Below, one piece after another: positions 12,429-46,352 of a stretch of 64,000 bases of DNA (its first letter is position 1; each line of letters starts with the position of its first letter). This DNA comes from an uncultured Desulfobacterales bacterium. GTDB taxonomy: Bacteria; Desulfobacterota; Desulfobacteria; Desulfobacterales; UBA11574. The DNA lies in NCBI GenBank assembly GCA_937998305.1, contig CALLDL010000004.1:7103-71102 (forward strand). The letters run 5' to 3'. Made by a program: the position numbers and the translations under genes. The notes under the pieces are model-generated. The model searched no databases. It had not been told where the DNA came from and saw only the letters and a list, made by a program, of their open reading frames with translations.

Positions 12429-12731
12429 TGTCCCTGGCCCCGGGTAACCTTCACAGATCCAAGGTCTGACAGGATAGATTTTACACAACGCATTTTCCAT
12501 ACTGTATTTCAGAAAGGGACAAGGTGCTGCGTTATACTCGGTATTTTCGATTTCTCCGGAATATTCGTTCCTAACAAAACCATATAAATCAATAAAATCC
12601 TCAAAGTTCATGTCCAGATAATCCGCAGCAAGGCGAGGATCCAGTTCAGACCATGGAATGCCAATCTTTTTACAGCAATTTCCGCATCTTTTGCAGTTGA
12701 ATTTCATTGTCATATTATCGTACGGCACCAA
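12399..12731 (-). CDS. YkgJ-family Cys-cluster (putative Fe-S/Zn) protein
   Basis: CKRCGNCC (CxxCxxCC) N-terminal signature. The start is ambiguous (GTG at 12731, or ATG at 12713 or 12707). Confidence 0.65.
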   Translation of the reverse strand: MVPYDNMTMKFNCKRCGNCCKKIGIPWSELDPRLAADYLDMNFEDFIDLYGFVRNEYSGEIENTEYNAAPCPFLKYSMENALCKIYPVRPWICEGYPGPGTSCVVGQKRS

Positions 12732-12746
12732 AATACAAAGTGATCT

Positions 12747-14159
12747 CTATTCAGATTCGTAAATGTTTGAAGCGATATCCGGGAAATTTTTTAAAAAACG
12801 GTATAATGTGGCCCGTCCCACACCCAGATATCTTGCAGCTTTGGCCTTATTTCCGCCGCTTCGAATCAGAGCTTCTTTTACGATTTTCGAATCCAGCCTC
12901 AGAGACGGTCCACGGGATAACCGATTATTTTCCTTCTTTTTCAATTCCATAGGGAGGTGAACAGGTTGAATAATTTTTCCTCTGGATTTTATAAGTGCAT
13001 AATGAATGGCACTTTGAAGCTCCCGGACATTCCCGGGCCAGGGGTAATCAATCATAACGGATAGCGCGCTTTCGGAAATGCTTTTTGTTTTTTGTCCTTT
13101 ATAAGCGATTTTTTCGAGAAAGTTGTTGACGAGGAGAGGAATATCATTTTTACGCTTTCTCAGCGGCGGTAAATGAATGGGAACCACGCTGATCCGATAG
13201 TATAAATCATCACGGAAATTCCCCTTTTCCACTTCGTGTTTCAGGTTTCGATTTGCAGCGCTGATAATTCGAACATCCACTGAAATGGTTTTTTCACCCC
13301 CCACCCGTTCGAATTTGCCTTCCTGTAGAACCCTCAGCAACTTTGCCTGCATCACTTTGGGCAAATCTCCTATTTCGTCCAGAAACAGCGTGCCGCCGTT
13401 TGCCATTTCAAATCGGCCCTTTCTGTCTCTCAAGGCTCCGGTAAAAGAACCCTTCACGTGACCGAAAAGCTCGCTTTCCAGCAATCCCTCGGGCAGAGCC
13501 CCGCAATTGACCGGTACGAAAGCTTTATGCACACGTAGGCCTTCGTTATGTATGGCATGGGCTACCAGTTCTTTTCCGGTACCGCTTTCTCCCTGAATGA
13601 GGACAGGAATATCAACTTCAGTAATCTCTCTTATCATCTCGAAGATGTCTTTCATCTTCGGGTCGCGTCCGATGATTCCGGAAAAGCGATGCTCATCCAA
13701 TTTTTGATGAGTAATGTCTTGAACGGTTCCAAGGGAGCGTAACGGGTTTCCATTCGCATCGTATATGGTCCGACATTTTTCATGCACATATTTCAATGTA
13801 TTGTTTTTAAGGAGCAGCCTGTGAACCATATCATAGCCTGTCTTTTTTTTTAATGAATCCTTAAACGCCTTGTCTACAGCCTTCTTGTCTTCAGGATGCA
13901 CGGAATCGAGAAAGGCTTCATAAGTTGCCCCAAATTCTTGAGGATTTGAATCAAAAATACGATAAATTTCGTCGGACCAATATAACGTATCGTTAACCAA
14001 ATCCAATTCCCAATGCCCTATATTTGCGATCCTTTCGGCTTCTTTCAATCTCTCTTCGCTTCTTTGAATGGCTTTTTTGCTTCCTTCCAGCTCTGCGATC
14101 TTTTTTTTCAGTACAGCAATCTTTTTTTCCAATTCTTTATAGGTTGGTTTTCTGCTCAT
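12747..14159 (-). CDS. sigma-54-dependent transcriptional activator (coiled coil + PAS + AAA+ + Fis-type HTH)
   Basis: Walker A GESGTGKE, a GSFTGA variant of the GAFTGA sigma-54 contact loop, and a C-terminal AARYLGVGRATLYRFLK HTH. Confidence 0.9.
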   Translation of the reverse strand: MSRKPTYKELEKKIAVLKKKIAELEGSKKAIQRSEERLKEAERIANIGHWELDLVNDTLYWSDEIYRIFDSNPQEFGATYEAFLDSVHPEDKKAVDKAFKDSLKKKTGYDMVHRLLLKNNTLKYVHEKCRTIYDANGNPLRSLGTVQDITHQKLDEHRFSGIIGRDPKMKDIFEMIREITEVDIPVLIQGESGTGKELVAHAIHNEGLRVHKAFVPVNCGALPEGLLESELFGHVKGSFTGALRDRKGRFEMANGGTLFLDEIGDLPKVMQAKLLRVLQEGKFERVGGEKTISVDVRIISAANRNLKHEVEKGNFRDDLYYRISVVPIHLPPLRKRKNDIPLLVNNFLEKIAYKGQKTKSISESALSVMIDYPWPGNVRELQSAIHYALIKSRGKIIQPVHLPMELKKKENNRLSRGPSLRLDSKIVKEALIRSGGNKAKAARYLGVGRATLYRFLKNFPDIASNIYESE

Positions 14160-18925: not shown

Positions 18926-19405
18926 ATGATTTATGACTTTACTGCAGACGACGTGTTTGAGATGGCTGAGGAACTTGAAAGAAATGGCGCTAAATTTTAT
19001 GGAGATGCCGCTCAAAACGCAGACAACCCTGAGTACAAAAAGCTTCTTGTTGGGCTTGCGGAAATGGAAGTCGAACATGAAAAGACATTTGTAAATTTAA
19101 GGTCGCAACTGTCGGGAAATGAAAAAGCATTAACGGCGTTTGACCCTCAAAATGAATCCGCCCTTTATCTTAAGGTTCTGGCAGATACCAAGGTGTTTTT
19201 TGAAAAAAAGATTGATTTTTCATCCATGAAAAGTGTCCTCAAGGCAGCCATCCTTGCTGAAAAAGATTCCATCGTTTTTTATCTTGGCATGAAAGAAATG
19301 GTCCCTGAACAGTATGGGAAGGATAAACTTGACAAGATTATCGAAGAAGAGATGGACCACATAAAAATACTCAGCAAAGAACTGGTTGCCCTGAAGAATC
19401 AATAA
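18926..19405 (+). CDS. ferritin-like / rubrerythrin-family diiron protein
   Basis: 159 aa with E-x-x-H helices EMEVEH and EEEMDH. Confidence 0.7.
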   Translation: MIYDFTADDVFEMAEELERNGAKFYGDAAQNADNPEYKKLLVGLAEMEVEHEKTFVNLRSQLSGNEKALTAFDPQNESALYLKVLADTKVFFEKKIDFSSMKSVLKAAILAEKDSIVFYLGMKEMVPEQYGKDKLDKIIEEEMDHIKILSKELVALKNQ

Positions 19406-30293: not shown

Positions 30294-31265
30294 ATGTTAC
30301 CCATTCGCGACACAATATCTTCCAAAAATTATCCGATTGTAAACAATACAATTATCGGTATCAACGTTGTCCTTTTTCTGTTTGAGATGTCCCAGGGGGC
30401 CCATTTAGACCGTTTTGTTTATATTTACGGCCTGGTTCCCGCCAGATACTCAGTGCCACAAATTGCATCTTATTTTACCACCGGTCAGCAGCTTCTGTCT
30501 TGGCTCTCTTTCATGTTTCTTCACGGCGGGTTCTGGCATCTTCTGGGCAATATGTGGTCTCTTTACATCTTTGGCGATAACGTCGAAGATCGTCTGGGTC
30601 CTTTTCGGTACCTTGTTTTTTATCTGCTGTGCGGCATTACATCGGGTCTTTCCCATCTTCTTTTCAATCTTCATTCCAATATACCCACCATCGGGGCCAG
30701 TGGCGCTATTGCAGGTGTCATGGGGGCTTATTTGATTCTTCATCCCAATTCCAAAATATTAACCTTGATTCCCATTATCTTTATTCCGTGGTTTGTTGAA
30801 GTTCCCGCATTTTTCTTTCTGGGCCTTTGGTTCGTTCTTCAGTTTCTAAATGCGGCAGGCAGCCATGGGAATATTGGCGGAATTGCATGGTGGGCTCATA
30901 TCGGTGGGTTCGTTTTTGGAATCGTTTTGTTAAAGATTTTTCTTGCGTTACCCGAAACCGGGGTTAGCGGTAAAATGCGTCGTGTCACTGCTAAAAGAAA
31001 AACGCACCGCCTTCAGGTTGTTCGGCCCGGCGGCCTTGGAAAAGATCCCCACCTTTATGGAACCATTGACATTACGTCATTCGAGGCGCTTGCAGGAACA
31101 CAAAAACTAATCAATATCCCAAAAGGATTCCAAAAACGGATTGTTAAAGTGATTGTTCCTTCCGGCGTGAAAGAAGGAAGCAAACTGCGTTTAAAAGGCT
31201 TGGGTAAAACAGCATCCGACGGCCAACGGGGAGATTTGTATCTTAAGGTAATGATAACATCTTGA
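30294..31265 (+). CDS. rhomboid intramembrane serine protease fused to a DnaJ C-terminal-like domain
   Basis: Rhomboid catalytic GASGAIAG and AHIGGF. The C-terminal ~80 aa (EALAGTQKLINIP...KLRLKGLGK...RGDLYLKV) look like a DnaJ CTD. Confidence 0.8.
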   Translation: MLPIRDTISSKNYPIVNNTIIGINVVLFLFEMSQGAHLDRFVYIYGLVPARYSVPQIASYFTTGQQLLSWLSFMFLHGGFWHLLGNMWSLYIFGDNVEDRLGPFRYLVFYLLCGITSGLSHLLFNLHSNIPTIGASGAIAGVMGAYLILHPNSKILTLIPIIFIPWFVEVPAFFFLGLWFVLQFLNAAGSHGNIGGIAWWAHIGGFVFGIVLLKIFLALPETGVSGKMRRVTAKRKTHRLQVVRPGGLGKDPHLYGTIDITSFEALAGTQKLINIPKGFQKRIVKVIVPSGVKEGSKLRLKGLGKTASDGQRGDLYLKVMITS

Positions 31266-32492: not shown

Positions 32493-33170
32493 ATGAGTAT
32501 GAATGTGGTGGAAAGGATAGATGAATTTGTTAAGGTCAGGAATGTGCTTGCAAGTGTTTTTGACAAAAGCGGTTTGGAAGCCTTCATACCGGAACTTATC
32601 CGGACAAATCCTGAGATAAAAATTTTTTCAACTGGCGGCACGTACAAAAAAATCAAAGAAATTCTCGGAGACACGGCGGATTCCTGCCTGACACAGGTTT
32701 CGGATTACACGGGTCAGCCGGAAACTCAGGGTGGTCTAGTGAAGACTCTCGATTTTAAGATATATCTCGGACTGCTAACCGAAACCTACAATGACGCCCA
32801 CAATGAAGATATCCGGCGAACAGGTGCTGTTCCCATAGATATGACCCTTTGCAACTTATATCCTTTTAAAGATACCATTTCAACAGCAGGGGTGACGGTT
32901 GAAATGGCTCGCGGTAATATAGATATTGGCGGGCCGTGCATGATAAGAGCGTCTGCAAAAAATTATATAAGGGTTGCATCGGTGGTCGATCCATCGGACT
33001 ATTCGGCGATTTTATCAGAAATGAATTCAAATAACGGCTCTATATCGCTGGGACTTCGCTACCGTCTTGCCCAAAAGGCATTTGACCACACAGCCGTTTA
33101 CGACCGGACCATCGCAGATTTCTTGGGCTCCAAGACAATTGATGAAGTGGCTGGGTGTTACACCTTATAA
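32493..33170 (+). CDS. purH: IMP cyclohydrolase (MGS-like N-terminal module of PurH) as a separate gene
   Basis: VLASVFDKSGL, FSTGGT, GNIDIGGPCMIRASAKN and the linker LAQKAFDHTAVYD all match the PurH N-terminal domain. The ORF stops where the AICARFT domain would begin. Confidence 0.8.
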   Translation: MSMNVVERIDEFVKVRNVLASVFDKSGLEAFIPELIRTNPEIKIFSTGGTYKKIKEILGDTADSCLTQVSDYTGQPETQGGLVKTLDFKIYLGLLTETYNDAHNEDIRRTGAVPIDMTLCNLYPFKDTISTAGVTVEMARGNIDIGGPCMIRASAKNYIRVASVVDPSDYSAILSEMNSNNGSISLGLRYRLAQKAFDHTAVYDRTIADFLGSKTIDEVAGCYTL

Positions 33171-33390
33171 ACGGGTAGCAAAGTCTGTTTTTTATACCAC
33201 TACCGCTTCAGGTATAATTAAATTTTTGCTGAAAGAACTCGTGAACAAGGGCTCGTAATGAAAGAACCTGCCCAGACGATTAATAAAGGTTTTTGCTTTA
33301 ACAGGGGGGTCATCCATAACGTTAAATGGCCTATGGTTCTTTCAAAACGATTCCTAATTCACCCAGACAGCTTCCAGACAAAAATTGAAT

Positions 33391-33442
33391 CATACCTGAA
33401 GCTTGTTTAAAACCGATTTGTTTCAAAGAACGAAACTATTAC
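33391..33442 (+). repeat. family D leader motif, copy D3
   Basis: CATACCTGAAGCTTGTTTAAAACCGATTTGTTTCAAAGAACGAAACTATTAC. Ends 36 nt before the ATG at 33479. Confidence 0.7.
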
Positions 33443-33478
33443 GAAAATTTTAATGGTCTTCAAAAAAAGGAGAAAAAA

Positions 33479-34729
33479 ATGGCTGAAGATTTAAAGAAAA
33501 TGTATCGGACAATAATGGACGATCACTTTCCACCTGGGATGGAGATTAGTTTTGTGGATCAGGATAAAAGACAAACCCTTTTTTATGAAAAAGTGGCCTG
33601 GACCATCGATAACATACAAAAAGGGCTCAGATACGGTGAAAATCCGGGTCAGGAAGCCGCACTTTACAAACTGATCAATGGAAATCTGGCTTTAGGAGAA
33701 AGCGAATCGATTCAGCCGGGACAGCATCTGGCTTCAGACATTGAGCTTTTGCAATCCGGCAAACATCCCGGCAAAACCAACCTGACCGATGCAGACAACT
33801 CTATGAACATTTTAAGATATTTTGTGGATAAACCCACAGCTGTCATTGTCAAGCACAACAATCCCTGTGGGGTTGCCCGCTCTGATACATTGGTAGATGC
33901 GTATCTAAAGGCAAACATGGCAGACAGGGTGGCGGCATTTGGAGGATGTATCGCCGTAAACCGGGCTGTAGATCAGGCAACGGCGGAAGCCATCACCGAA
34001 CAATACGCTGAAGTCGTTGTTGCACCCGATTTTGAAGACGGTGTAATGGACATCTTTGCAAAGAAAAAAAACCTCAGGGTGATACGTATCGGTAATATCA
34101 ACAGGCTGCAGAACTTTGTCGGGCAAAGATGTGTGGAATTCAAGAGCCTGATTGACGGCGGTATCATCGCCCAGTGGTCATTTGTGCCGGCAGCCCGGAC
34201 AAAGGCAGATCTAAAACTTGCCGCATGCGATTATAAAGGTAAGCCGTATCAGGTTAACCGAGAGCCCACAGAACAAGAATACAACAACCTGCTCTTTGGA
34301 TGGCTTGTGGAATCCGGCATTACATCCAATTCCGTCATTTATGTCAAAGACGAGGTTACCGTCGGCATCGGTACCGGTGAACAGGACCGGGTGGGTGTTG
34401 CCGAAATTGCAAGGGACAAGGCCTACCGAAAGCTGGCGGACCGTTACTGCTTTGAAATGCATAATATTTCCTATAATGATTTGAAAGATGAAGATAAAAA
34501 AGCAGAAATTGATGCTAAAGTGGCCGATGAAAAAGGCGGACTGATCGGCTCCGCCATGGTCAGTGACGCCTTTTTCCCTTTTAGAGACGGTATTGATGTC
34601 GGCCTGAGAGAGGGGATTACTTCAGTGATTCAACCGGGTGGATCTGAAAATGACTACCAGTCCATCGAGGCCTGTAATGAAGTCGGTGCGACAATGGTCT
34701 ATACAGGGCAGAGAAGTTTCAAACACTAA
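33479..34729 (+). CDS. purH: AICAR formyltransferase (C-terminal module of PurH) as a separate gene
   Basis: LRYGENPGQEAALY, VKHNNPCGVA and the C-terminal QPGGSENDYQ...VYTGQRSFKH. Own RBS AAGGAGAAA. Confidence 0.88.
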   Translation: MAEDLKKMYRTIMDDHFPPGMEISFVDQDKRQTLFYEKVAWTIDNIQKGLRYGENPGQEAALYKLINGNLALGESESIQPGQHLASDIELLQSGKHPGKTNLTDADNSMNILRYFVDKPTAVIVKHNNPCGVARSDTLVDAYLKANMADRVAAFGGCIAVNRAVDQATAEAITEQYAEVVVAPDFEDGVMDIFAKKKNLRVIRIGNINRLQNFVGQRCVEFKSLIDGGIIAQWSFVPAARTKADLKLAACDYKGKPYQVNREPTEQEYNNLLFGWLVESGITSNSVIYVKDEVTVGIGTGEQDRVGVAEIARDKAYRKLADRYCFEMHNISYNDLKDEDKKAEIDAKVADEKGGLIGSAMVSDAFFPFRDGIDVGLREGITSVIQPGGSENDYQSIEACNEVGATMVYTGQRSFKH

Positions 34730-35078: not shown

Positions 35079-36080
35079 TCAAGGTCTTGTGCTGTTCAGC
35101 CCCACAAAGGTACCACCGTTTCTCTGGCATAAAGCGCGCATAAGAGTGGCAAATCGTTCGCCGGTGTTGCCGCGTTGGTTCGTTTGTTCCATAACGACCG
35201 GAAAACCAACGGCATGGATCCGGACCCGACGAGAACCGTCTTTTTCTGTCTTGTTAATTCTGTCCACTTCATTGATGACCGGCTGGATAGCGGAACCGCT
35301 GAATTCATCACCGAATACATAAAGGCTTATTTTTTTATCTTTTGAATAGAACATATTGATCGCGGCGGTAATTCCTTCTACCGGGCTGCTGTTGCTGAAA
35401 GAGTTCCAAGTGCGCAGGGCTGAGATGATGGCCCTGCGCCGGGCCGGGGTGTCCGGTATCCATTTCCCGGCATACTGGGAAAACAGGAAATTTCCCATAT
35501 CGTTCATTATCTGGATGCCTTTGACTTTCGGATAGATTTCGAGCGTCTCCCGCATTTTTTTCTGGACCAGGCTCCAGGCATTTCGCTGCATGCTTCCGGA
35601 TGTGTCGATAATAAAAACGATGTACTCACTGTCCACGGGAATACCACCTACCGAACGGGTTATTTTTTTAGGAAGGCTTTTATAAAGCCGCTTCATTTCT
35701 TCGGTCAGCTCCTGACGTGCAAGGGCCAGTTTGCCTTCAATAATATTTTGAACCATAGCATCGTCTTTGGATCCTGCAAATCGGCCTTTAATCGTCGACA
35801 GATCGCCCTGGAGCCGGGCAAGCTTTTTCTTATCTTTTGACAGCTGAACCTTTTTAGCCGTCAATTCGCGGTTCAGGATTCGGGTGTCACCTTGGATTTC
35901 AAACAGTTCGTTTTCCAGGCGAACAATCTCAGCCTGCATGTTTTCTTTGATTTCTTCAATGACCACCGGTTCAGCAAATTTGGACAGTACAAACAACAGA
36001 ATAATAGCACCGAATCCGCAGCAGATACAGTCAAGAAAGGAAAGGCTGAATATATCTATGTCCCGTCTGTGTTTTTTCAT
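35079..36080 (-). CDS. ExbD/TolR-like TM helix + coiled coil + VWA-domain protein (paralogue 2)
   Basis: N-terminus KKHRRDIDIFSLSFLDCICCGFGAIILLF (basic N-terminus and an Asp inside the TM). Heptad-rich region, then VWA with the MIDAS motif FIIDTSGSM. Confidence 0.75.
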   Translation of the reverse strand: MKKHRRDIDIFSLSFLDCICCGFGAIILLFVLSKFAEPVVIEEIKENMQAEIVRLENELFEIQGDTRILNRELTAKKVQLSKDKKKLARLQGDLSTIKGRFAGSKDDAMVQNIIEGKLALARQELTEEMKRLYKSLPKKITRSVGGIPVDSEYIVFIIDTSGSMQRNAWSLVQKKMRETLEIYPKVKGIQIMNDMGNFLFSQYAGKWIPDTPARRRAIISALRTWNSFSNSSPVEGITAAINMFYSKDKKISLYVFGDEFSGSAIQPVINEVDRINKTEKDGSRRVRIHAVGFPVVMEQTNQRGNTGERFATLMRALCQRNGGTFVGLNSTRP

Positions 36081-36111
36081 AGGGTTAAATCCATGTCATC
36101 CGGCGTTGTCC

Positions 36112-37203
36112 TTACGGCCAGTTTTTCGAGGGACAGAAAAAAGATCCCTTGGTTTTCTTGGCCAAACGCCAATAGACGTCAGCAGCCATGGGATCCCCCT
36201 CCATGGGATAAAGTATGATGTTCACCGGCACCCTTTTAGGCAGTTGCGAAATTGCTTCGTTAAACAGACTTACCCGTTTTTTACTGGAAACCCTTGTTCG
36301 CCATGGCTTGCTGCTTCCCATGGTCGGCAAACCATCGGTAAGTAAAAATATGTTGTCCGGGGTCGGTTTCATCTCGTTGATCGATTTGATCGCGCTTATC
36401 AGACTGGTTCCTTTTTCCGGAACCAGCCGGTACAAACTTTCTGCCGAAAGGTTTAATGGGTCCATCGCGCCGGCATCCAGCCAGGTTCCTTTTGAATGTT
36501 CAAGCAAAGGGCGTGCGGTTTCGTTAAATATGTATATTTGAAATTGACTGGTTGAAGGAAGCTGGGTGATCAGCCAGTTCATGGTTTTCACTGCCTGTTG
36601 CCATTTGGGAGCGCTTATTTTCTGAACATTTTTTAAATTGCGCCGGCGGATAATCCCGACAACGGTTTCATCCAGCATACTGGCTGAGACGTCCAGGAGA
36701 ATAAAGATCCGCTTTCCCCCCATTTTTAAATCCGTAAGGTACTGGCGATCTCCCTGCCCTGGAAACGGGCGCAATCTGGAACCTATGTCATCCTGTGTTT
36801 TGGCCCCGGCTTTCAACCGCCGAAGCTCCTCTTCAAGAGATCTTAAATCATCTTTTAACTTATTGATGTGTGTTTTGCTTGCAAGGGTGTCCTTGTCTCT
36901 ATCCGCCAGTTCAACCTTTTTTTCATTGAGTATTTTTATAATTTCGCGGGATCGTCCCTGTGTGGTCACCAGGTCGGCATCAATTTCAGAAAGGATGTTG
37001 CGAGACTCAACCAGTTTTTTTTTATCGTCCAAAACCTGCTGTTCTATTTTGTTCACTTGAGCACGCAAATCCGACGTTACGGCGTCCCGTCGATGAGCGC
37101 TTTTGGCGTTTACCACGACAAATAAAAGAATAATCGCCCCTAACCCGCAGCAGATGCAGTCAATGAAAGATAAGCTGAATACATTTAATTTTCTACGTTT
37201 CAT
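36112..37203 (-). CDS. ExbD/TolR-like TM helix + coiled coil + VWA-domain protein (paralogue 1)
   Basis: Start set at MKRRKLNVFSLSFIDCICCGLGAIILLF (ATG at 37203, 11-nt overlap with the upstream gene). Coiled coil, then VWA with MIDAS ILLDVSASM and LLTDGLPT. Confidence 0.75.
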   Translation of the reverse strand: MKRRKLNVFSLSFIDCICCGLGAIILLFVVVNAKSAHRRDAVTSDLRAQVNKIEQQVLDDKKKLVESRNILSEIDADLVTTQGRSREIIKILNEKKVELADRDKDTLASKTHINKLKDDLRSLEEELRRLKAGAKTQDDIGSRLRPFPGQGDRQYLTDLKMGGKRIFILLDVSASMLDETVVGIIRRRNLKNVQKISAPKWQQAVKTMNWLITQLPSTSQFQIYIFNETARPLLEHSKGTWLDAGAMDPLNLSAESLYRLVPEKGTSLISAIKSINEMKPTPDNIFLLTDGLPTMGSSKPWRTRVSSKKRVSLFNEAISQLPKRVPVNIILYPMEGDPMAADVYWRLAKKTKGSFFCPSKNWP

Positions 37204-38608
37204 CGGCTTCCAAGCAGGCAATGAGTCGTATGGTTTCTCGGGATGTCCCAAGGCGAACGATTTGGCCAAGTTCGAGTATAGCACTCCCGTTGATCTGTCG
37301 ATTATCTACAAATGTTCCCTGACTGCTGAAGTCCGTTAGAACAATACGGTTATCTTCGCGCTGAACCGTACAATGCTTTTTGGAAACATCGGATGATTTC
37401 GCTTCAACACGAATGCCTTTTCCAAAAGGGTAATGATCGCAGCCGATGATGAGAGGTTTTTCGGAGACGGGATAGGCCACATCGCGATAGAGTAAATGTG
37501 AGGGGTTTATCGTATGGGAGGTTTGATAAGAAATAGCTCGGGAAGTTGTAGATTCTGTCTGCTGCCAGGGACGGCTGGTAAAAAAAGATGCCCCATTTTT
37601 AAAGTGTCGATCGGTCAACGGGTCCCGGAGTTTTAAAACTCCCAGAGCACCGGCTCCGGGTTCGAGTTCAATGATTTTGCAGTTTTCTATTTCTAAAAGT
37701 TTATCCTTTAATCCCGGCAGACAGGCGACTCGATGGGTCGTTTGAAGGACGGTCAAGAGATTGTTTTTACCATGGTCATCTCGCATTTTTTCAATGAATC
37801 GGCAAATTTCATCATATATCTTCTCGCTCTTTTGAAACAATACATCACGCAGAAGAGTAATACGATAAGAATTTTTTCCATGGGATAATTCAAATAAAAA
37901 GGAGGGTTGGTTTTTAAAAATATCAAGGGCAGATGCCAGGCGGTTATAAAGTTCCTGTTCCGTTGCGGCCTGATGAAGGGGATCGAATCTTGTGGCATGA
38001 ACAAATTCTTCAGCAATGGTTTCCACCCAGCTCCGGTATAGCTGTTCCAGGCTAATTTCCTCGAATGTCACCGAGTTTTTCGCTGTTAGATATTCACCCT
38101 GATGAAGATAAGTGATTTCGAATCGGTGCAAATGGATGTCCAGGTGCAACAGCATTGCATTTGGATAAGCGTGATATGATGCGGCTATGGGCAGGGATAC
38201 AAAACCTTTAACGGGTATGGAAAGCTCCTTGGCCATACCCAGAATAAGTCCCAGCTGTTCTTTGCTGTAAAAGTTGGGTACAGCGATGATCATCTCATCG
38301 CCATACTGTTTAACGATTTCCCAGACGTGAAATAGATGGGTGTATGCGATTTCAGCATGATTTTGCGCATGTCGGTTCTTCTGTTTTAAAGGTTCCGTAT
38401 TCAATTGATCCCAGAATCTGTTGATGACTTGAAGTGGAAAGAGGTGTGCCTTGTCTGATGCCGGTTTTCCGACGAGCAGACGCTCTTTTTCCGGTATGGC
38501 GAATCCGGGACTTTCTTGTTCCTGTCCGTCAACGGTTAACAATCTTATTGGATTGTCCCCGGCAACCAGGATTCCGGAATCGGCGAGTTCAAGCCCTAAA
38601 AGTGTCAT
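37193..38608 (-). CDS. degenerate Hsp70/actin-fold protein with a C-terminal divergent FHA domain
   Basis: Hsp70-like order of segments (LGLELADSG; AVPNFYSKEQLGLILGMAKELSIPVKGFVSLPIAAS; LHLDIHLHRFE) with the nucleotide-binding glycines lost. C-terminus has VSKKH..LTDFSSQGTFVDN, FHA-like. Confidence 0.65.
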   Translation of the reverse strand: MTLLGLELADSGILVAGDNPIRLLTVDGQEQESPGFAIPEKERLLVGKPASDKAHLFPLQVINRFWDQLNTEPLKQKNRHAQNHAEIAYTHLFHVWEIVKQYGDEMIIAVPNFYSKEQLGLILGMAKELSIPVKGFVSLPIAASYHAYPNAMLLHLDIHLHRFEITYLHQGEYLTAKNSVTFEEISLEQLYRSWVETIAEEFVHATRFDPLHQAATEQELYNRLASALDIFKNQPSFLFELSHGKNSYRITLLRDVLFQKSEKIYDEICRFIEKMRDDHGKNNLLTVLQTTHRVACLPGLKDKLLEIENCKIIELEPGAGALGVLKLRDPLTDRHFKNGASFFTSRPWQQTESTTSRAISYQTSHTINPSHLLYRDVAYPVSEKPLIIGCDHYPFGKGIRVEAKSSDVSKKHCTVQREDNRIVLTDFSSQGTFVDNRQINGSAILELGQIVRLGTSRETIRLIACLEADET

Positions 38609-38721: not shown

Positions 38722-39525
38722 TCATTGTGTATGCAAATGCCTGGTCAATCTCTCTTCACAATATGCTTCTGTTTCCAAGACATATCTTTCCTGAAGCAGC
38801 TGCAGCTGGTGCAGCATAAACATGAGAACAATGCTGATAAGAAGCGCGATCAAAGTTGAGTTAAACGCTACCCCCAGGCTGCGGGTAACACCGAAAATTT
38901 CTCCTTCAATGGCCTGATGCGCCAGCCCAAGTGCATCTCCAATGCCTCGTACCGTGCCGATAAATCCGATGGAGGGAATGGCCCAGGCAATATATCTAAT
39001 CATGGACAATTCAGATTCCAATCGTTCACCTTCGGCCGAACAGTAGGCATGGGTTGCATCTGCGACATCCTGAATATTTTTTGTTGAACTAAATCTTTGC
39101 AAACCGGCCAGCAATGCTCTGGGAAGCAACCCGTTTTGTTGATACGTCGGCAGTGCTTGAATTTCCCGGGACAGTTCCCGGGTATCTTCAGGCAATATAC
39201 GAACCCCTTCGGCTAAAGGAATCAAACCCTGTTGTAACAGCGAACGGTGTCTTATGGTGGTAACAGCCTTAAACGCCATTATGGCCAGCGCCCAAAACAT
39301 GAGAACAAAACAGGCTTCTTGCTCATAATCGCGGATCAACACATAGGCAGAACGTTCGGTTGTTTGCGTTTTGTCTTTTTGGAGCATCTCAGCCTGACGG
39401 GTCAGAATGGCGTCGGCATTTGGACGAATGATGCCGACGTAAACGGCATGAACAAAAATGATAATCAGAATCAGAGAGAAAAGCTGGTAAATAAACTCCA
39501 TGGATATCGGTAATGTTTTTTTCAT
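38722..39525 (-). CDS. MotA/TolQ/ExbB-family proton-channel protein
   Basis: 267 aa with three TM segments. AIPSIGFIGTVRGIGDAL fits the G..GTV.GI signature, followed by GVAFNSTLIALLISIVLMF. Confidence 0.8.
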   Translation of the reverse strand: MKKTLPISMEFIYQLFSLILIIIFVHAVYVGIIRPNADAILTRQAEMLQKDKTQTTERSAYVLIRDYEQEACFVLMFWALAIMAFKAVTTIRHRSLLQQGLIPLAEGVRILPEDTRELSREIQALPTYQQNGLLPRALLAGLQRFSSTKNIQDVADATHAYCSAEGERLESELSMIRYIAWAIPSIGFIGTVRGIGDALGLAHQAIEGEIFGVTRSLGVAFNSTLIALLISIVLMFMLHQLQLLQERYVLETEAYCEERLTRHLHTQ

Positions 39526-39862: not shown

Positions 39863-40195
39863 TCAGATATCGTATGGAAAATCAACACCCTGATCTGCCG
39901 GAATCGTTTCTGACGGAACGAACGGTTTTACCGGTTTTGTCTTTTTGGGAACATTTTTCTCTTGTGTCAACGTCTTTGGTTTGTTTGTATCTTTATGGGT
40001 TTTTGAGGCATTATCAACGGAAACATTGTTCGACGGTTTTTTGGGGTCATTTTGGGCAAAATAGGTTGATCCTGAATGTTGTCCGAGCGGTACGTTTAAT
40101 TCATAAAAGAATCCTGTCGGCACAGTTCCTGCCCATGTCGCTCCAAAAAGACATGTCCCCAATAAAGCAATTGCTATAAAAAATCTGTTTACCAT
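39863..40195 (-). CDS. small secreted/anchored Lys/Pro-rich protein
   Basis: Start at MVNRFFIAIALLGTCLFGATWA (signal or anchor), 2 nt after the upstream stop. K/P-rich spacer KPKTLTQEKNVPKKTKPVKPFVP. C-terminus ADQGVDFPYDI. Confidence 0.55.
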   Translation of the reverse strand: MVNRFFIAIALLGTCLFGATWAGTVPTGFFYELNVPLGQHSGSTYFAQNDPKKPSNNVSVDNASKTHKDTNKPKTLTQEKNVPKKTKPVKPFVPSETIPADQGVDFPYDI

Positions 40196-40197
40196 GG

Positions 40198-42309
40198 TCA
40201 TTTCAAATATCTGCAAACCCGAAAACCGACATCCTCACGTTTGTCATCACCGTAACTGCGATAGGCCAGTCTCAAGGTGTTGATACTTCCATGTTTCCAG
40301 CTGGATCCTCTGATCACATGGTGTTTACCGTTTTTGGGTCCGGTTGGGTCCACATATGTTTTTTCGGGATCATAACTGTAAATTGAATAAAAATCGTGAC
40401 ACCATTCTGCTACGTTACCGCCCATATCATACAACCCCAGGGTATTGGATTTAAATTTTGCCGGCGGAGCTGTTGTTACATATTCGTCATTGTAACCTTC
40501 GAGAACGGTGGGAAGCAAGTTTTTTGCGGATTGATCCAAATAATTTCCGGATAGTTGAACGGGAGGAAATTTGTTTCCCCATGGATATTTCGAAAATGCA
40601 TGTTTACCGGTAAACCGGGCACAGTACTCCCACTCTGCTTCGGTAGGCAGCCTGTAACCGGTATTTAACGGCTCGACGGCAGTCAACGTGTTCCCTTTTT
40701 TAACATAAGCCGGTGGCAGTGACGCTTTGGCGCTGAGCCAGTTGCAGAACCGGGCAGCCTGTTCCCAGGTGACTCGAACCGCGGGCTGGGCAGAATTGTT
40801 CAGACTCTGTGATTGAAAAAAGCCTGAATTGTGTTTGGCCAAAAATTCCTTGAATGCGTGGTTGGATACTTCTTTAAGGCCCATGTAAAACGGCCGTTTT
40901 AGTATGACCTTTCTAAGGGTTTCATTGGATCTGTGACCCTGTTCTCTGCGTGAAGATCCCATGGTGTAGGACCCGGGCTGGATTAATTTCAATCTGTAGC
41001 CTGTTTGAGTTGTAATCACCAGCGGTTCAGTTTCTTTGGACGCCCCCTTTTTCTTGAGCGCAACTTTCAATTGTTTTGGAAACCCGGGTTGGGGGGTGAT
41101 GCGGATTCCATAGGGATGAAAGCCTTTTTTATTGAATTCCAGTTTGTGTTCCACGGCGATCAGATTTAATTTTTTCGGAACAATGCCCCATGATTTGCCG
41201 TCTATTATCAGTTTGGTGTCGGGCGGTTCAACCGACAGGTGGACGATACCTCGTTTGGGTTTTAAATTCACATTGAGCTGTTTTGGTGCAGCCGATACAA
41301 CTTGTACGTTACGGTTTGTTTTTTTATAACCGGCCTTTGAAATTTGAACAACATGATGTTTGTCCGGAGAAAGATCGAGTGTCAGCGGTGTCTGACCGAC
41401 AAAAGCCCCGTCAATTATGATATTGGCTCCGGCGGGTTTGGTTTTGATCGTCAATTTGCCGTCTGCCGGCTGAAGCCGTACGTCTTTTATTTCTTGGGGT
41501 TCATTCAATTTTACATCCAGATGGTGTTTCCATGTTTTAAAACGATCGGCACTGATCTCAAGAAGATAAGACCCAGGCGACAGTTGAGTGTGTAAAGGGG
41601 TTTTCCCGAAGGATTTTCCGTCGATCAAAACATTTGCGTCCAAAGGCACGGAACTGACAATGATATCCGACCAACCCGGAAGCAGCGCCAGGTTAAACTC
41701 CTGAAATTTGTCACAGCCATGCACGGTAACATCGGTCTGAAAGTTTTGATAATTCTCGGCACCAATTTCAATTTTGTGCAGACCCGGCAGTATTTCAAGA
41801 TTCTCTATGGGGGTGTTTCCAACCACAGTACCATCGATATATACTTGTGCGCCTAAAATGTTACTTTCTGTATCACCCGAATCATAGGCGCGAATCATCA
41901 GGCGACCGGGACGTTCTTGCATCTTTAGACGCAGGTTCTGCCGTTTTTCATCGCTGACCCAAAATGTATGGTCAAGGGGTAAAAAACATTCTCTGAGAGC
42001 CTCCATCGTGTATTTTCCGGGACGCATCAAGTAATAGTTCCCGATTTTCGGTGTCAGGATACTCCCTGAAAACACAATACGTTCCGGAACCGGCTCGATG
42101 TCTATCACTACCTGACGGGCAGTGAAGACAAACCAGGTCGAGAGACAAAGAAAAATCAGGACGATTCCAATAAGAACGCCGACAACCCATTTAAAAATGA
42201 TAAACGGCTTTGGTCTTTTAGATGGCGGCTTGGACCGAAAGGATATCGGTTCGATTTTTATAGGCGTTTTCTCTCCACCGTTGTTTTGGATTGTGTCTGT
42301 CAATGTCAC
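40198..42309 (-). CDS. membrane-anchored PEGA-repeat protein with a C-terminal FGE-sulfatase (SUMF1-like) domain
   Basis: One TM (FIIFKWVVGVLIGIVLIFLCL), 4-5 PEGA-like repeats (e.g. VLIDGKSFGKTPL..LSPGSYLLEISADRFK), then RVTWEQAARFCNWLS, GYRLPTEAEWEY, GLYDMGGNVAEWC and IRGSSW. Confidence 0.85.
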   Translation of the reverse strand: MTLTDTIQNNGGEKTPIKIEPISFRSKPPSKRPKPFIIFKWVVGVLIGIVLIFLCLSTWFVFTARQVVIDIEPVPERIVFSGSILTPKIGNYYLMRPGKYTMEALRECFLPLDHTFWVSDEKRQNLRLKMQERPGRLMIRAYDSGDTESNILGAQVYIDGTVVGNTPIENLEILPGLHKIEIGAENYQNFQTDVTVHGCDKFQEFNLALLPGWSDIIVSSVPLDANVLIDGKSFGKTPLHTQLSPGSYLLEISADRFKTWKHHLDVKLNEPQEIKDVRLQPADGKLTIKTKPAGANIIIDGAFVGQTPLTLDLSPDKHHVVQISKAGYKKTNRNVQVVSAAPKQLNVNLKPKRGIVHLSVEPPDTKLIIDGKSWGIVPKKLNLIAVEHKLEFNKKGFHPYGIRITPQPGFPKQLKVALKKKGASKETEPLVITTQTGYRLKLIQPGSYTMGSSRREQGHRSNETLRKVILKRPFYMGLKEVSNHAFKEFLAKHNSGFFQSQSLNNSAQPAVRVTWEQAARFCNWLSAKASLPPAYVKKGNTLTAVEPLNTGYRLPTEAEWEYCARFTGKHAFSKYPWGNKFPPVQLSGNYLDQSAKNLLPTVLEGYNDEYVTTAPPAKFKSNTLGLYDMGGNVAEWCHDFYSIYSYDPEKTYVDPTGPKNGKHHVIRGSSWKHGSINTLRLAYRSYGDDKREDVGFRVCRYLK

Positions 42310-43934
42310 ACCTTAATGTTACAAATTATGGATACGCGCAACGATGTCTGGCCGGGTTTCACGGTGATTTTCAGCCGGACATCCTGGTATCCGTTGCGTG
42401 AGCCGACCACGGTGTACGTGCCGGGTCTTAGCGATAATTCGCGAAAGGTAAATTTGCCGAGTTTTCCGATTTTATAAACGGCGATTTCCGTAAGGTTATC
42501 AGACTCGATTATCACTTTAACAGGAGTTCCGGCGATATCCACCAAGGTTTTTAGCTCGTTTAATCGGGCGTTTAAATGTGTGCCCCTTTGTTCCAGTTTC
42601 TCGGCCTCCTCGATCAAACGTATCGCATTTTCAAGCTGCCGGTCCGATTCCATGACGTCGGGTTTTTCAAGAAAAAATGCAATTCGTTTAGCAACCTGAA
42701 TGTGTTCCAAAGAGCGTTTTTTACCCTGGACGGCAAAACTGATATTAGGATCAATTTTAAGAACTGTCAGATAAGATTTAAGGGCCTGTTCCCAATTTTC
42801 AGCCTGTTCGGCAGACATTGATTTTTGGCGAAGTTTTTCAATTTTATCTAACCGGATGGCCTCGTCAACCTGCAATAAAGCGCTTTTTACTTCACGTGAT
42901 TGGGGTTGGAAAGATTTTGCCTTTAAAAGCGTTGTTCTGGCGAGTTGATAATGGCCATTGTGATATGCCGTCAGCCCATCCGACATGAGTTTCTGAAACT
43001 GTTCGTCGACGATTTTTTCTTTCATCCGGATTAAGCCGTTTTGAGCTTCCCTGGATTCAGGGTCCAATTGCAGTGCCCTCTGAAAATCGGCATGTGCAAA
43101 AGCAAACCGATTATTTTCTTCATGGTTTTTCCCCGATTTTACCAGACGGTTCACTTCATCAAGCTTCTTGGCCCGTTCCAAATTCCGCCGGGCGGATTCA
43201 TCTGACGGTTGAATCTTTAAAGCCGTAGAAAATTTTTGTTGGGCAATGACACTGTCACCATTTTCAAGAGCCTTCTGACCTTCGTCTGTCAGTTTTTGAA
43301 ACACGGTTCCGGTGTTACTGATCAACTCTTTTGCTATATTGGCGGCTTGAGCATATTTTTCAGCTGCAGCAGAAAACGAACGATCCAAAAGCAGCCGGTC
43401 TCCTTCTTCGCTGAGGGCTGTCATGGTTTCATATTCTTCACCACCCCATACGGAACCCTCTTTTTCTTCTATCTCATTTTTAAGTTTCAATAACTTTGCC
43501 AATTCCTTGTCTGCCGTTTCTTTTTCCCGTTCAAATTTGGCAGTGTCGACGGTTTGCATTGATTTAATCGCTGGTTGTCGCTCTAGGGGAACGAAAACCG
43601 GTTCTGTCGTGGTGCCGACCCGCTCTTTGTTTGTCTTGGGAACATTCAAATCCTGTTTTTTTAAAATCCCGGTTTCCGAAGATTCTGTATGTTCCGTGTT
43701 TTTAGCCAGATTCACCGGATGTTTTGATAAATGGCGAATAAGAAAAAGACCCCCTGTCACCATTGAAGTAAGAATGATGAGAAGCAATAAAACGGTGATA
43801 GAGGTTATTCGAAAAGAGCGATCCGAGTCAGGCTGGTCATTCCCTTGGTGCACCTCAAGGGGCGTGATTATTTCCACGCCAAAATCTGAAGCCTCTTTAC
43901 CTTGAGGAGGTTGAGTGGGTGTGTCGGACGGCAT
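42306..43934 (-). CDS. membrane-anchored TPR-repeat protein with a C-terminal PEGA-like domain
   Basis: TM ITVLLLLIILTSMVTGGLFLI and several TPR-like A..F..AL...P repeats. The C-terminus LRPGTYTVVGSRNGYQDVRLKITV is PEGA-like. 4-nt overlap with the downstream gene. Confidence 0.75.
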   Translation of the reverse strand: MPSDTPTQPPQGKEASDFGVEIITPLEVHQGNDQPDSDRSFRITSITVLLLLIILTSMVTGGLFLIRHLSKHPVNLAKNTEHTESSETGILKKQDLNVPKTNKERVGTTTEPVFVPLERQPAIKSMQTVDTAKFEREKETADKELAKLLKLKNEIEEKEGSVWGGEEYETMTALSEEGDRLLLDRSFSAAAEKYAQAANIAKELISNTGTVFQKLTDEGQKALENGDSVIAQQKFSTALKIQPSDESARRNLERAKKLDEVNRLVKSGKNHEENNRFAFAHADFQRALQLDPESREAQNGLIRMKEKIVDEQFQKLMSDGLTAYHNGHYQLARTTLLKAKSFQPQSREVKSALLQVDEAIRLDKIEKLRQKSMSAEQAENWEQALKSYLTVLKIDPNISFAVQGKKRSLEHIQVAKRIAFFLEKPDVMESDRQLENAIRLIEEAEKLEQRGTHLNARLNELKTLVDIAGTPVKVIIESDNLTEIAVYKIGKLGKFTFRELSLRPGTYTVVGSRNGYQDVRLKITVKPGQTSLRVSIICNIKV

Positions 43935-44203: not shown

Positions 44204-45436
44204 TTATTCTGAGCCTTCGGATGTTGTCTTTTCTTTATGTTCCGATGAGATATCCGGATCAAAGCCGGTTTCTGTGATATATATCTGTCGCAGCAATTCG
44301 CGCCAGTGTTTAAATTGTTCTTCGGCGGTTCCGGTCAGCTCATACTGCTTGCCTTCGAATTCCATGACAACGGGCTGCATTTCACTGCCAAACGATTCGC
44401 TCAACTCCTTGATTGCTGCCGAGTGGATTTCAGCTTCTTTAGTAACATTAAACCCGTTGACGATCACCTGGCCGCCGATTAAAATCATACTCATCTGAAG
44501 CGCGCCGGTGTTGTTGACTTCTCCCGCATTCAGTGCAATAGCACCTGCCAGTAGCAACATGCCGACCAACTTTTGATTTAAGGCGTTACGTTTAATCTCC
44601 TTGATAGCCTTAATTTCTTCATAGTTGAGCTTGCGCCAGTTCTCATAAGAAGACCAAATATTTGCATAATATTCTTCATAATACTCATTCAAGGTGTCCA
44701 CATACATGTATTCCCGCTCCCGTATCTTTAGCAGACGGATCATTATGGTGTCTTCATCGGCAGGCAGGCGATTGACGGCGATGAGATTTTTTTTATCTTT
44801 GGTCAGATATCCATTGTAGACGGATGGCGCAAAGTCTTGTGCAAATTTTAATTTCGAGACGGTACGGATGTTCTTGATCTCTTCAGGGGGCAGCTTCACG
44901 AGATAAGTGGCGATATCATTGGAGATGGTATTGTATAGATCCTGATACACATCTTTTTCTCCGGCTCGATTTCCCGAATAGAATGCCAGAGAGGCTTCGG
45001 ATTTATATTTTTTGCTGAACCAGGTTTTCCGGGTCGCATCCGTCACATCGATTTGAAGTATCAAGTGCTCTCCGTTGGATTCAAGAACTTTACCTTTGAC
45101 CAGAACGTCGATACTTTCCGTTTTACCTGGAAGGGCACGCACTGCGCCCCAATAGCTGCTTTGCTGCATGGTGCTTTTCAAATGATACGGCATGAAATGA
45201 CGTTCTGCTTTTCTGATTTCTTGACTGGTATGTTCTTCTTTGGCTTGCTCTTCTGTAATTTTGTCGGATTCAAAAACCAGGATGCCGACATCGAGCAGTT
45301 GCTCTTCTAAGATTTCTTCTTTGGCTTTCATTATTGTCGTAGGACCGACCTTTTGAGCATTAAAGGTGGCACATCCTGTGAACAAAATTAAAATCAAAAT
45401 CATTAATAAGAGGTTATGATGAACGCTAAATCTCAT
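44204..45436 (-). CDS. lipoprotein of unknown function with a C-terminal Gly-rich hydrophobic segment
   Basis: Start set at MRFSVHHNLLLMILILILFTGC (lipobox LFTGC). Late segment LVGMLLLAGAIALNAGEVNNTGALQMSMILIGGQVIVNG. Confidence 0.6.
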   Translation of the reverse strand: MRFSVHHNLLLMILILILFTGCATFNAQKVGPTTIMKAKEEILEEQLLDVGILVFESDKITEEQAKEEHTSQEIRKAERHFMPYHLKSTMQQSSYWGAVRALPGKTESIDVLVKGKVLESNGEHLILQIDVTDATRKTWFSKKYKSEASLAFYSGNRAGEKDVYQDLYNTISNDIATYLVKLPPEEIKNIRTVSKLKFAQDFAPSVYNGYLTKDKKNLIAVNRLPADEDTIMIRLLKIREREYMYVDTLNEYYEEYYANIWSSYENWRKLNYEEIKAIKEIKRNALNQKLVGMLLLAGAIALNAGEVNNTGALQMSMILIGGQVIVNGFNVTKEAEIHSAAIKELSESFGSEMQPVVMEFEGKQYELTGTAEEQFKHWRELLRQIYITETGFDPDISSEHKEKTTSEGSE

Positions 45437-45458
45437 CTTAGCACACACTTTAATGGCC

Positions 45459-46352
45459 TTACTTGCGCACATTTTTTTTATATTGTTCATATTCTTTCCA
45501 GAGCTTTTCCTTAAGTTCAGGATCGGATTCTTTTTCTGCCGCTTCGCGAAGCTGTCTGGCCACGATGTCATCATCTTCAGGGTCGTAACGATTTTTAGGA
45601 TGTCGTTGGGAACCTTCCGCTCCTTCCCGGGATTTGTCTTTATCAGTCAATGTGGTGTCATCCCTGCCTTCTTCAGAGTTATTTTCCTTTCCGGCTTCTA
45701 GGCCGCTTTTTTCTTTTTCGGTTTCTTTCGGTTCTTCGGATGAATCCTGACGGGAATCAGCGGTTTCTGCTTTTGAATCGGTATCTATCTCGATGCCCTT
45801 GTCACGCAGGCGTTGTGCCGCAGCTGCAGCCTCTTGGGCCAGATCCTGCAGTTTTTCTGATGATTTTGTCTGGATCAAATCCAATTCCTCGAGCAGCATC
45901 TCATCGAACTCGGCCAGGGAACGGTCGAGTTGGCGGTCCAAGACGGTTACTTTGTCAACTACCTGTTCCTCGGGAATGGAAGGGTCCAGCATCGCGGAAG
46001 TATCATCAGAAGATGATGCCCCGTAAGTTGCTTTTCGGGTATTATATTTAGCGCTAAGTGCTTCCAATTTATCCACTTTTTCCCGGTTTTCAGCAACCAT
46101 GGCCTGCACTCGAATTAAGTACGTATTATAATCTTTTATGATATCCGGTAATATATCCTCGGATTTTTTTAACTTTTCCAGCTCAAAAGAGATGCGTTCC
46201 TCGGTGGCCATACTGATACGTAAATCCTTGCGTGCCGATTCAAGGGCCGATTCAATTTTTTGCATCGAGGCAGCATATAGGCTGGTAGACAGCACAAGCA
46301 ATAACACTTTGGCCAGAATAACTTTCCACCATTTGGGATCGTTTATGATCAT
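45459..46352 (-). CDS. secreted coiled-coil / acidic low-complexity protein
   Basis: Signal-like VILAKVLLLVLSTSLYA, heptad-rich middle and an acidic S/E/K tract. Conserved-looking C-terminus DDDIVARQLREAAEKESDPELKEKLWKEYEQYKK. Confidence 0.55.
   Translation of the reverse strand: MIINDPKWWKVILAKVLLLVLSTSLYAASMQKIESALESARKDLRISMATEERISFELEKLKKSEDILPDIIKDYNTYLIRVQAMVAENREKVDKLEALSAKYNTRKATYGASSSDDTSAMLDPSIPEEQVVDKVTVLDRQLDRSLAEFDEMLLEELDLIQTKSSEKLQDLAQEAAAAAQRLRDKGIEIDTDSKAETADSRQDSSEEPKETEKEKSGLEAGKENNSEEGRDDTTLTDKDKSREGAEGSQRHPKNRYDPEDDDIVARQLREAAEKESDPELKEKLWKEYEQYKKNVRK

Follow-up and report, generated by a model that had tools for sequence, protein, structure and literature searches.

What work might be done by a pair of membrane-anchored von Willebrand factor A (VWA) proteins whose genes lie beside a lone gene of the MotA/TolQ/ExbB family, with neither ExbD nor TolR as its partner? 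The question is raised by a locus in a 64,000-nucleotide stretch of DNA, here called the window, from an uncultured Desulfobacterales bacterium (GenBank assembly GCA_937998305.1, contig CALLDL010000004.1, positions 7,103 to 71,102 of the forward strand). The two genes in question are referred to below as VWA1 and VWA2, and the product of the MotA/TolQ/ExbB-family gene as the ring protein. Ion-driven motors of the 5:2 type power flagella, TonB-dependent uptake, Tol-Pal envelope maintenance, gliding and type 9 secretion. The answer favoured here, with a probability of roughly 65%, is that VWA1 and VWA2 are the axle (trans-pore helix) subunits of a proton-driven motor of this type, for which the adjacent MotA/TolQ/ExbB protein provides the ring. 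Its genomic context lends good support to the view that the pair takes the place of ExbD/TolR in the motor.

The first-pass annotation of this DNA had described two paralogous proteins encoded at 35079-37203 and had quoted from them the N-terminal strings KLNVFSLSFIDCICCGLGAIILLFVV and DIDIFSLSFLDCICCGFGAIILLFVL, along with DVSAS (residues 171-175) and LLTDG (287-291) in VWA1 and DTSGS (159-163) and FGDE (256-259) in VWA2; both reading frames are present, on the minus strand, and all of the strings were found. Since close homologues of VWA1 are uniformly 363 residues long, its start is taken as the ATG at 37203 (MKRRKLNVF...) and not an upstream GTG, and at its other end the protein finishes with a conserved W-P. 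The kinship between the two proteins, also proposed at first sight, was borne out at two levels. By BLASTP only the N-terminal 142 residues could be aligned, with 30% identity and an E-value of 4e-16, and a comparison of the profiles of the two orthologue families with hhalign extended the alignment to 312 columns (E 1.2e-33), setting DxSxS on DxSxS and LLTDG on FGDE, as had been supposed for these motifs. Judged by their sequences, then, VWA1 and VWA2 are full-length paralogues. The family is a large one, with 1545 clusters at 50% identity (E<=1e-3) and a presence in at least 593 species-representative genomes; 80 related loci were compared.

At the N-terminus each paralogue has a basic stub, MKRRK in VWA1 and MKKHRRD in VWA2, followed by a transmembrane (TM) helix with an Asp inside it, namely Asp15 of VWA1 (codon 37161-37159) and Asp17 of VWA2 (codon 36032-36030). 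Conservation was followed in 91-99 diverse homologues of VWA1, at 28-51% identity, and in 73 sequences of VWA2. The Asp was kept in 99/99 VWA1 and 73/73 VWA2 homologues with an intact N-terminus, although the motif itself served in picking the homologues for these counts. Twelve representatives without the motif either start beyond the position of the Asp or have unrelated N-termini, and in none of the twelve is the Asp substituted within an intact motif. Around it the two paralogues share the motif FSLSFLDxxxCGFGA. In VWA1, F13, D15, G22 and L26 are invariant and C19 and G20 almost so, giving the consensus FSLSFLDxMxCGFGAVxLLF; in VWA2 the invariant positions are S14, F15, L16, D17, C21 and G24. 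Inspection of both sequences found no His inside either TM helix. The flank on the N-terminal side of the helix carries a net charge of +2.7 and +2.3 in the two families, with R3/R4 conserved, and the C-terminal flank one of -1.2 and -1.7, so that the positive-inside rule would place the N-terminus in the cytoplasm and the stalks and VWA heads in the periplasm. This fits the earlier suggestion that the heads lie outside the cytoplasm. Both paralogues accordingly present what is looked for in an ExbD/TolR-type subunit, a single, predicted N-in TM helix with a conserved Asp on its cytoplasmic side, and the homologue search that had been proposed found this Asp invariant and the metal-binding residues of the VWA domain kept in both families.

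The ring protein scored 51.7 bits against MotA_ExbB of Pfam (PF01618), where the cut-off is 22.9 bits, with an E-value of 9e-14, and it is closer to TolQ than to MotA. Its residues P184, T191 and T224 align to P138, T145 and T178 of E. coli TolQ (8odt), the pore residues around the TolR Asp, and all three are invariant in 72/72 orthologues of the ring protein. The VWA pair is always found together and beside a single MotA/TolQ/ExbB gene.

Several points weigh against an axle made of these two proteins, one being that their likeness to ExbD and TolR did not reach significance by any comparison made. Pfam ExbD (PF02472) gave no match at E<=1 for VWA1 or VWA2. A 40-column TM profile of both families, run against the PDB at E<=10, brought up no ExbD, TolR or MotB; the same profile, unfiltered, scored -0.7 bits against E. 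coli ExbD and TolR, and hhalign gave a probability of 1.4% (P 0.036) against ExbD. The hhalign alignment, of 11 columns (VFSLSFIDCIC / INVTPFIDVML), does set the family Asp on Asp25 of ExbD, for which the E. coli ExbD sequence and the helix with Asp25 were verified against PDB 6tyi chain Y. Of the ExbD/TolR-like N-terminus put forward by the first-pass annotation, the N-in helix with its invariant Asp has therefore stood and the similarity has not, and a profile comparison without significance was the very outcome that had been named beforehand as telling against it. With its 25 or so residues a TM segment has little signal to offer, and what is denied is thus demonstrable homology and not an equivalent role. 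VWA1 and VWA2 are not classed here as members of the ExbD/TolR family (PF02472), and in them a helix of about 100 residues and a VWA fold replace the periplasmic alpha/beta domain of ExbD/TolR. Other points count on the same side. The topology is predicted from the positive-inside rule, and both the stoichiometry and the heterodimer are drawn from co-occurrence only. The heptad periodicity of the stalks is modest, with z-scores of 1.7 and 2.6 against shuffled sequences. Lastly, phmmer turned up no ExbD/TolR-like open reading frame (ORF) in the window, nor in the 10 kb to each side at the 80 loci, which speaks for the axle; the queries were two E. coli sequences, ExbD and TolR, and a very divergent ExbD could escape them. 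A single ORF of the window, at 18926-19405, gave a weak phmmer match (E 0.012) and was rejected as a candidate, being without a TM helix or the Asp motif and, by eye, helical in the manner of a ferritin or rubrerythrin.

Beyond the membrane, VWA1 passes the Pfam VWA_3 cut-off with 28.2 bits against 27. The Pfam VWA matches of VWA2 are sub-threshold (E 0.0015-0.0023), and its assignment consequently rests on the profile alignment to VWA1 and on the motif of the metal-ion-dependent adhesion site (MIDAS). An AlphaFold2 model of VWA1, made with 91 diverse homologues, has a mean pLDDT (the model's own confidence score) of 89, with values above 90 in the VWA domain. In it, residues 8-133 form one continuous helix, 134-153 are disordered, and a confident alpha/beta domain follows from about 160 to 363, matching a layout of a TM segment at about 9-31, a helix on to 133, a linker at 134-153 and a VWA domain at about 160-363. 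The MIDAS residues of VWA1 are D171 (codon 36693-36691), S173, S175, T266 and D290, conserved at 90%, 100%, 93%, 80% and 98-100%, respectively. Those of VWA2 are D159 (codon 35606-35604), S161, S163, a Ser in FSNSSP, and D258, with DTSGS and G257-D258 invariant in the 73 sequences. A VWA fold with a DxSxS...T/S...D site is thereby seen in VWA1 by its model and in VWA2 by profile alignment, in agreement with the DxSxS-type MIDAS domains first described for the pair.

It is the structure of the VWA1 domain that raises the first of the competing explanations. Foldseek matched it to the VWA domains of CLCA1, ITIH1, BatB and the calcium-channel alpha2-delta subunit with E-values of about 1e-7, and the matches included BatB (3ibs) and a Bacteroides aerotolerance VWA protein (4jdu). 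VWA1 and VWA2 might then be membrane-anchored periplasmic proteins of the BatA/BatB type, working beside the MotA-like protein and not inside it, with the TM Asp serving in helix packing or in some other role; a weak BatC-like match of the TPR protein encoded in the same cassette and the non-significant similarity to ExbD would agree with this. The MoxR AAA+ ATPase and DUF58 are, however, absent from the nine cassette proteins by Pfam and NCBIfam, and a lone ring with its pore Thr residues intact and no ExbD/TolR partner would be left without an axle. The whole TM motif is, moreover, extremely conserved in both paralogues and in at least six phyla, which is easier to reconcile with a functional helix in tight packing than with one that merely tethers the protein, and a Bat-type role is accordingly held to be improbable.

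If VWA1 and VWA2 do form the axle, the next question is whether they do so together. Their TM motifs are nearly identical, so that either paralogue could fill both positions, and the axle could be a homodimer of one of them, or two alternative homodimers could exist, with a separate role for the second paralogue. Against this, the two genes accompany each other wherever the locus is not truncated by the end of a contig (78/80), they keep their order throughout, and their reading frames often overlap or abut, while the published account of related proteins, to which we return below, reports predominantly heterologous pairs (PMC12204202). Each family moreover has its own strict stalk length. Counted from the Asp of the TM helix to the first Asp of the MIDAS, the spacing comes to 154-157 residues in VWA1 and to 141-145 in VWA2, as measured in 73 loci from at least six phyla, with an offset of 10-15 residues between the two. 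We therefore give a homodimeric axle little credence and prefer one that contains both paralogues. A test of the heterodimer by co-variation of the stalk lengths gave r 0.15, which is no signal, because both lengths are nearly invariant. The constancy of the spacing suggests that the stalk acts like a ruler of fixed length, at about 15 nm per 100 helical residues, and a stalk of this kind suits a device that reaches one fixed layer of the envelope. The heptad-rich stalk of the first-pass annotation survives in part, the long continuous helix of the VWA1 model supporting it and the heptad periodicity being modest.

The genes around the pair are arranged with the same regularity. The order TPR, PEGA/FGE, (small protein), MotA-like, (FHA), VWA1, VWA2 was found in all loci with enough flank, and it spans the Desulfobacterota, Gammaproteobacteria, Kiritimatiellia/Verrucomicrobiota, Acidobacteriota, Planctomycetota and Myxococcota. 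Cultured carriers include Steroidobacter agaridevorans and Peristeroidobacter agariperforans (loci L070, L064). A full cassette with 47% identity also occurs in a metagenome-assembled genome labelled Klebsiella pneumoniae (CAMAXE010000004.1, locus L061); it resembles those of environmental Gammaproteobacteria, and the label looks doubtful. The gene directly upstream of VWA1, of which the last 11 nucleotides overlap the VWA1 start, encodes a protein with an FHA domain and no predicted TM segment. The predicted structure of its residues 1-345 resembles the nucleotide-binding domain (NBD) of Hsp70 (Foldseek E 1e-16 to 1e-14), with TM-scores of 0.7-0.78 at 3.8-4.7 A against isolated NBDs, a fold that is invisible to Pfam and NCBIfam. 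By eye, its FHA domain is without the usual Gly-Arg and Asn-Gly (IIGC, SSQGT), which makes classical binding of phospho-Thr doubtful.

This gene, placed as it is, invites the view that the topology is inverted and that the VWA heads are cytoplasmic, forming with the Hsp70-like/FHA protein a VWA-chaperone signalling or conflict module; combinations of VWA with FHA or Hsp70 do occur in cytoplasmic conflict systems (PMC7159879). The basic stubs and acidic C-terminal flanks of both families speak against it, as do the signal, lipoprotein or N-terminal TM segments of the other cassette proteins, which point to the envelope. In addition, the FHA gene is absent from 15 of the 72 loci that have both the MotA-like gene and VWA1, and those 15 keep the rest, so that cytoplasmic heads are regarded as very unlikely. 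With the heads in the periplasm, as preferred here, the FHA protein is the only cytoplasmic component and is taken as an accessory regulator or anchor at the ring. The cytoplasmic loop ILPEDTRE..R of the ring protein (residues 105-122) is conserved. Within it, the 56 aligned loci with an FHA gene all have L111 and R120, whereas in the 14 aligned loci without one L111 is Gly and R120 mostly E/Q/A, with Arg retained in one. This could mark a contact site, but the loci without the FHA gene have a loop sequence of their own in common and resemble a single clade, and the contrast is thus confounded by descent. Thr115 of ILPEDTRE was considered as an obligatory phospho-Thr site for the FHA domain and rejected, the position being T, A, S or V in FHA-containing loci. 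Finally, the cassette might defend against phages in the manner of Zorya, in which a MotAB-like sensor works with effectors. A weak PADLOC match of the MotA-like protein to ZorA (E 0.011) is in favour of this reading, but it can be set aside almost entirely, given no other PADLOC component (ZorB, ZorC/D or ZorE) beyond coiled-coil noise, no nuclease or effector domain by Pfam or NCBIfam, and a gene order kept through at least six phyla, which points to an envelope system conserved by vertical descent and not to a variable defence island.

How a motor with VWA1 and VWA2 as its axle might operate can be outlined as follows. One copy each of VWA1 and VWA2 would insert into the pentamer of the ring protein (5:1:1), and, as in ExbBD, TolQR and MotAB, the protonation and deprotonation of the two Asp residues would make ring and axle rotate against each other. 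Paired with one another, the helices of about 100 residues would give a periplasmic stalk with a constant length of roughly 15 nm, and the MIDAS-bearing VWA heads at its end would bind, via a metal ion, an acidic residue of a partner in the periplasm or the outer membrane, whereby proton flow would become a pulling or turning of that partner. Likely partners or loads would be the co-conserved envelope proteins of the operon (PEGA/FGE, TPR, lipoprotein and acidic coiled-coil), while on the cytoplasmic side of the ring the Hsp70-NBD-like/FHA protein would be an optional regulator or anchor. If this is true, an axle with a stalk and two metal-dependent heads would amount to a direct drive of inner-membrane energy to the outer envelope without a TonB/TolA adaptor, and the conserved cassette offers concrete candidates for both the load and the cytoplasmic control of the motor. 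A broader proposal, which is tentative and for which we would not claim even odds, is that the pair forms the core of a complete, uncharacterised trans-envelope machine of at least nine genes in at least six phyla. It would combine a ring driven by the proton-motive force with an axle of fixed length whose two MIDAS heads "grab-and-pull", would have the PEGA/FGE, TPR and lipoprotein products as partners and the Hsp70-NBD-like/FHA protein as its regulator in the cytoplasm, and would serve an envelope function outside those of Ton, Tol, Mot, Agl and the type 9 secretion system (T9SS).

The nine genes are all on the minus strand (Table 1). The PEGA/FGE protein matched Pfam PEGA at 1e-45 and FGE-sulfatase at 2e-43, and its 132 bits against GldK of NCBIfam fall under the cut-off of 350. 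The two genes upstream of the TPR gene, along with a further lipoprotein, surfaced by all-against-all clustering of neighbouring ORFs. Homologues of the 412-residue lipoprotein lie upstream of the TPR gene in 45/80 loci, and the 297-residue exported protein is conserved in 41/80. The further lipoprotein, of about 220 residues, is encoded downstream of VWA2 in 37 loci that are apparently mainly gammaproteobacterial (for example, at 12254-12919 of locus L078). Neither Pfam nor NCBIfam gave a family match for the two lipoproteins or the 297-residue protein.

Table 1. Coordinates in the window of the VWA pair, the ring protein and the other genes of the cassette.
Feature	Length (residues)	Coordinates	Strand	Layout and remarks
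VWA2 (VWA paralogue 2)	333	35079..36080	-	Stub, TM helix, helical stalk, VWA
VWA1 (VWA paralogue 1)	363	36112..37203	-	Stub, TM helix, stalk, linker, VWA
Hsp70-NBD-like/FHA protein, cytoplasmic	471	37193..38608	-	NBD-like 1-~345; FHA ~370-465
MotA/TolQ/ExbB-family channel protein (ring protein)	267	38722..39525	-	PF01618; predicted pentameric partner
Small exported protein	up to 117	39863..40216	-	N-terminal hydrophobic signal-like segment; weak conservation, no family match
PEGA/FGE protein, inner-membrane-anchored	703	40198..42309	-	TM near 36-54; four PEGA; FGE-sulfatase/GldK-like
TPR protein, membrane-anchored	542	42306..43934	-	TM ~48-66; C-terminal PEGA/CarboxypepD_reg-like beta domain
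Predicted lipoprotein	412	44204..45442	-	Lipobox LFTGC; no family match
Exported protein	297	45459..46352	-	Signal-like N-terminus, coiled coil, acidic tail

Two further observations concern the plus strand of the window. The purH gene at 32493-34729 is split into two ORFs within the AICARFT_IMPCHas domain. The first, of 225 residues, holds the MGS-like IMP cyclohydrolase part and profile positions 1-60; the second, of 416 residues, covers positions 65-311 and has its own ribosome-binding site, and the 308-nucleotide spacer between them matched no Rfam family. The other gene, at 30294-31265, joins a rhomboid protease domain (Pfam 1e-33) to a DnaJ_C-like domain (5e-9) at the C-terminal end.

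Set beside the established motors, the system shares with ExbB-ExbD and TolQ-TolR a MotA_ExbB ring with the TolQ-equivalent Pro and two Thr residues, and an axle with a basic stub, a predicted N-in helix and a cytoplasmic-side Asp. It differs from them in that the TM similarity is not significant and in having a helix and a VWA domain in place of the periplasmic domain; a third subunit of the TonB/TolA type did not come to light, and the part that transmits the force would be fused to the axle itself. With MotA-MotB and PomA-PomB it would have in common a pentameric channel, a dimeric Asp-bearing axle and a periplasmic extension of that axle, but the present pair lacks an OmpA-like peptidoglycan-binding domain and does not lie among flagellar genes. 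BatA and BatB are likewise paired, membrane-anchored periplasmic VWA proteins of similar VWA structure in an operon with a TPR protein, from which VWA1 and VWA2 are set apart by their Asp motif, long stalk and MotA-like neighbour and by the lack of MoxR/DUF58. The gliding and T9SS machinery GldKLMN and the Agl-Glt system of Myxococcus are also trans-envelope systems with a 5:2-type motor and TPR proteins, and they include an FGE-like GldK or a VWA adhesin, CglB (PMC9946355). An NCBIfam scan gave no matches to GldL, GldM or GldN, and VWA is here fused to the proposed motor axle in place of being carried on an outer-membrane lipoprotein.

The nearest counterpart of all is found in a study of June 2025 in Mol Biol Evol (PMC12204202), in which paired "TPH-vWA" proteins were described beside a lone tolQ, with a conserved Asp in a "trans-pore helix". 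Their homologues co-occur tightly with tolQ homologues and without tolR/exbD, the genes are predominantly heterologous pairs, AlphaFold3 models put the pair of Asp residues inside the Thr ring, and the proteins are without a known phenotype. The first-pass annotation had known of no described fusion of ExbD with VWA, and in this it was overtaken, as the design of a motor axle bearing VWA is already described there, computationally only, and the present pair is a further example. Common to both are a single TM helix tethering a VWA domain, the conserved Asp, the heterologous pair beside a tolQ-like gene with no tolR/exbD, and the lack of the SHLS/His motif of TonB/TolA. Their ranges overlap in the Proteobacteria and Verrucomicrobia, with the present family reaching also the Acidobacteriota, Planctomycetota and Myxococcota and the present member being Desulfobacterales-like. 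In architecture, context and taxonomic range the pair matches TPH-vWA, for which that study took its reference from Idiomarina loihiensis. The literature searched yielded nothing else on the cassette and no mutant phenotype or experiment on the family. The main text of that study makes no mention of an FHA domain, Hsp70, PEGA, sulfatase/formylglycine or coiled coil (lipoproteins and a fixed stalk length were not searched for there), and the published description covers the ring and the axle only. Next to it, the nine-gene envelope cassette in at least six phyla and the fixed length of the stalk appear to be new descriptive points.

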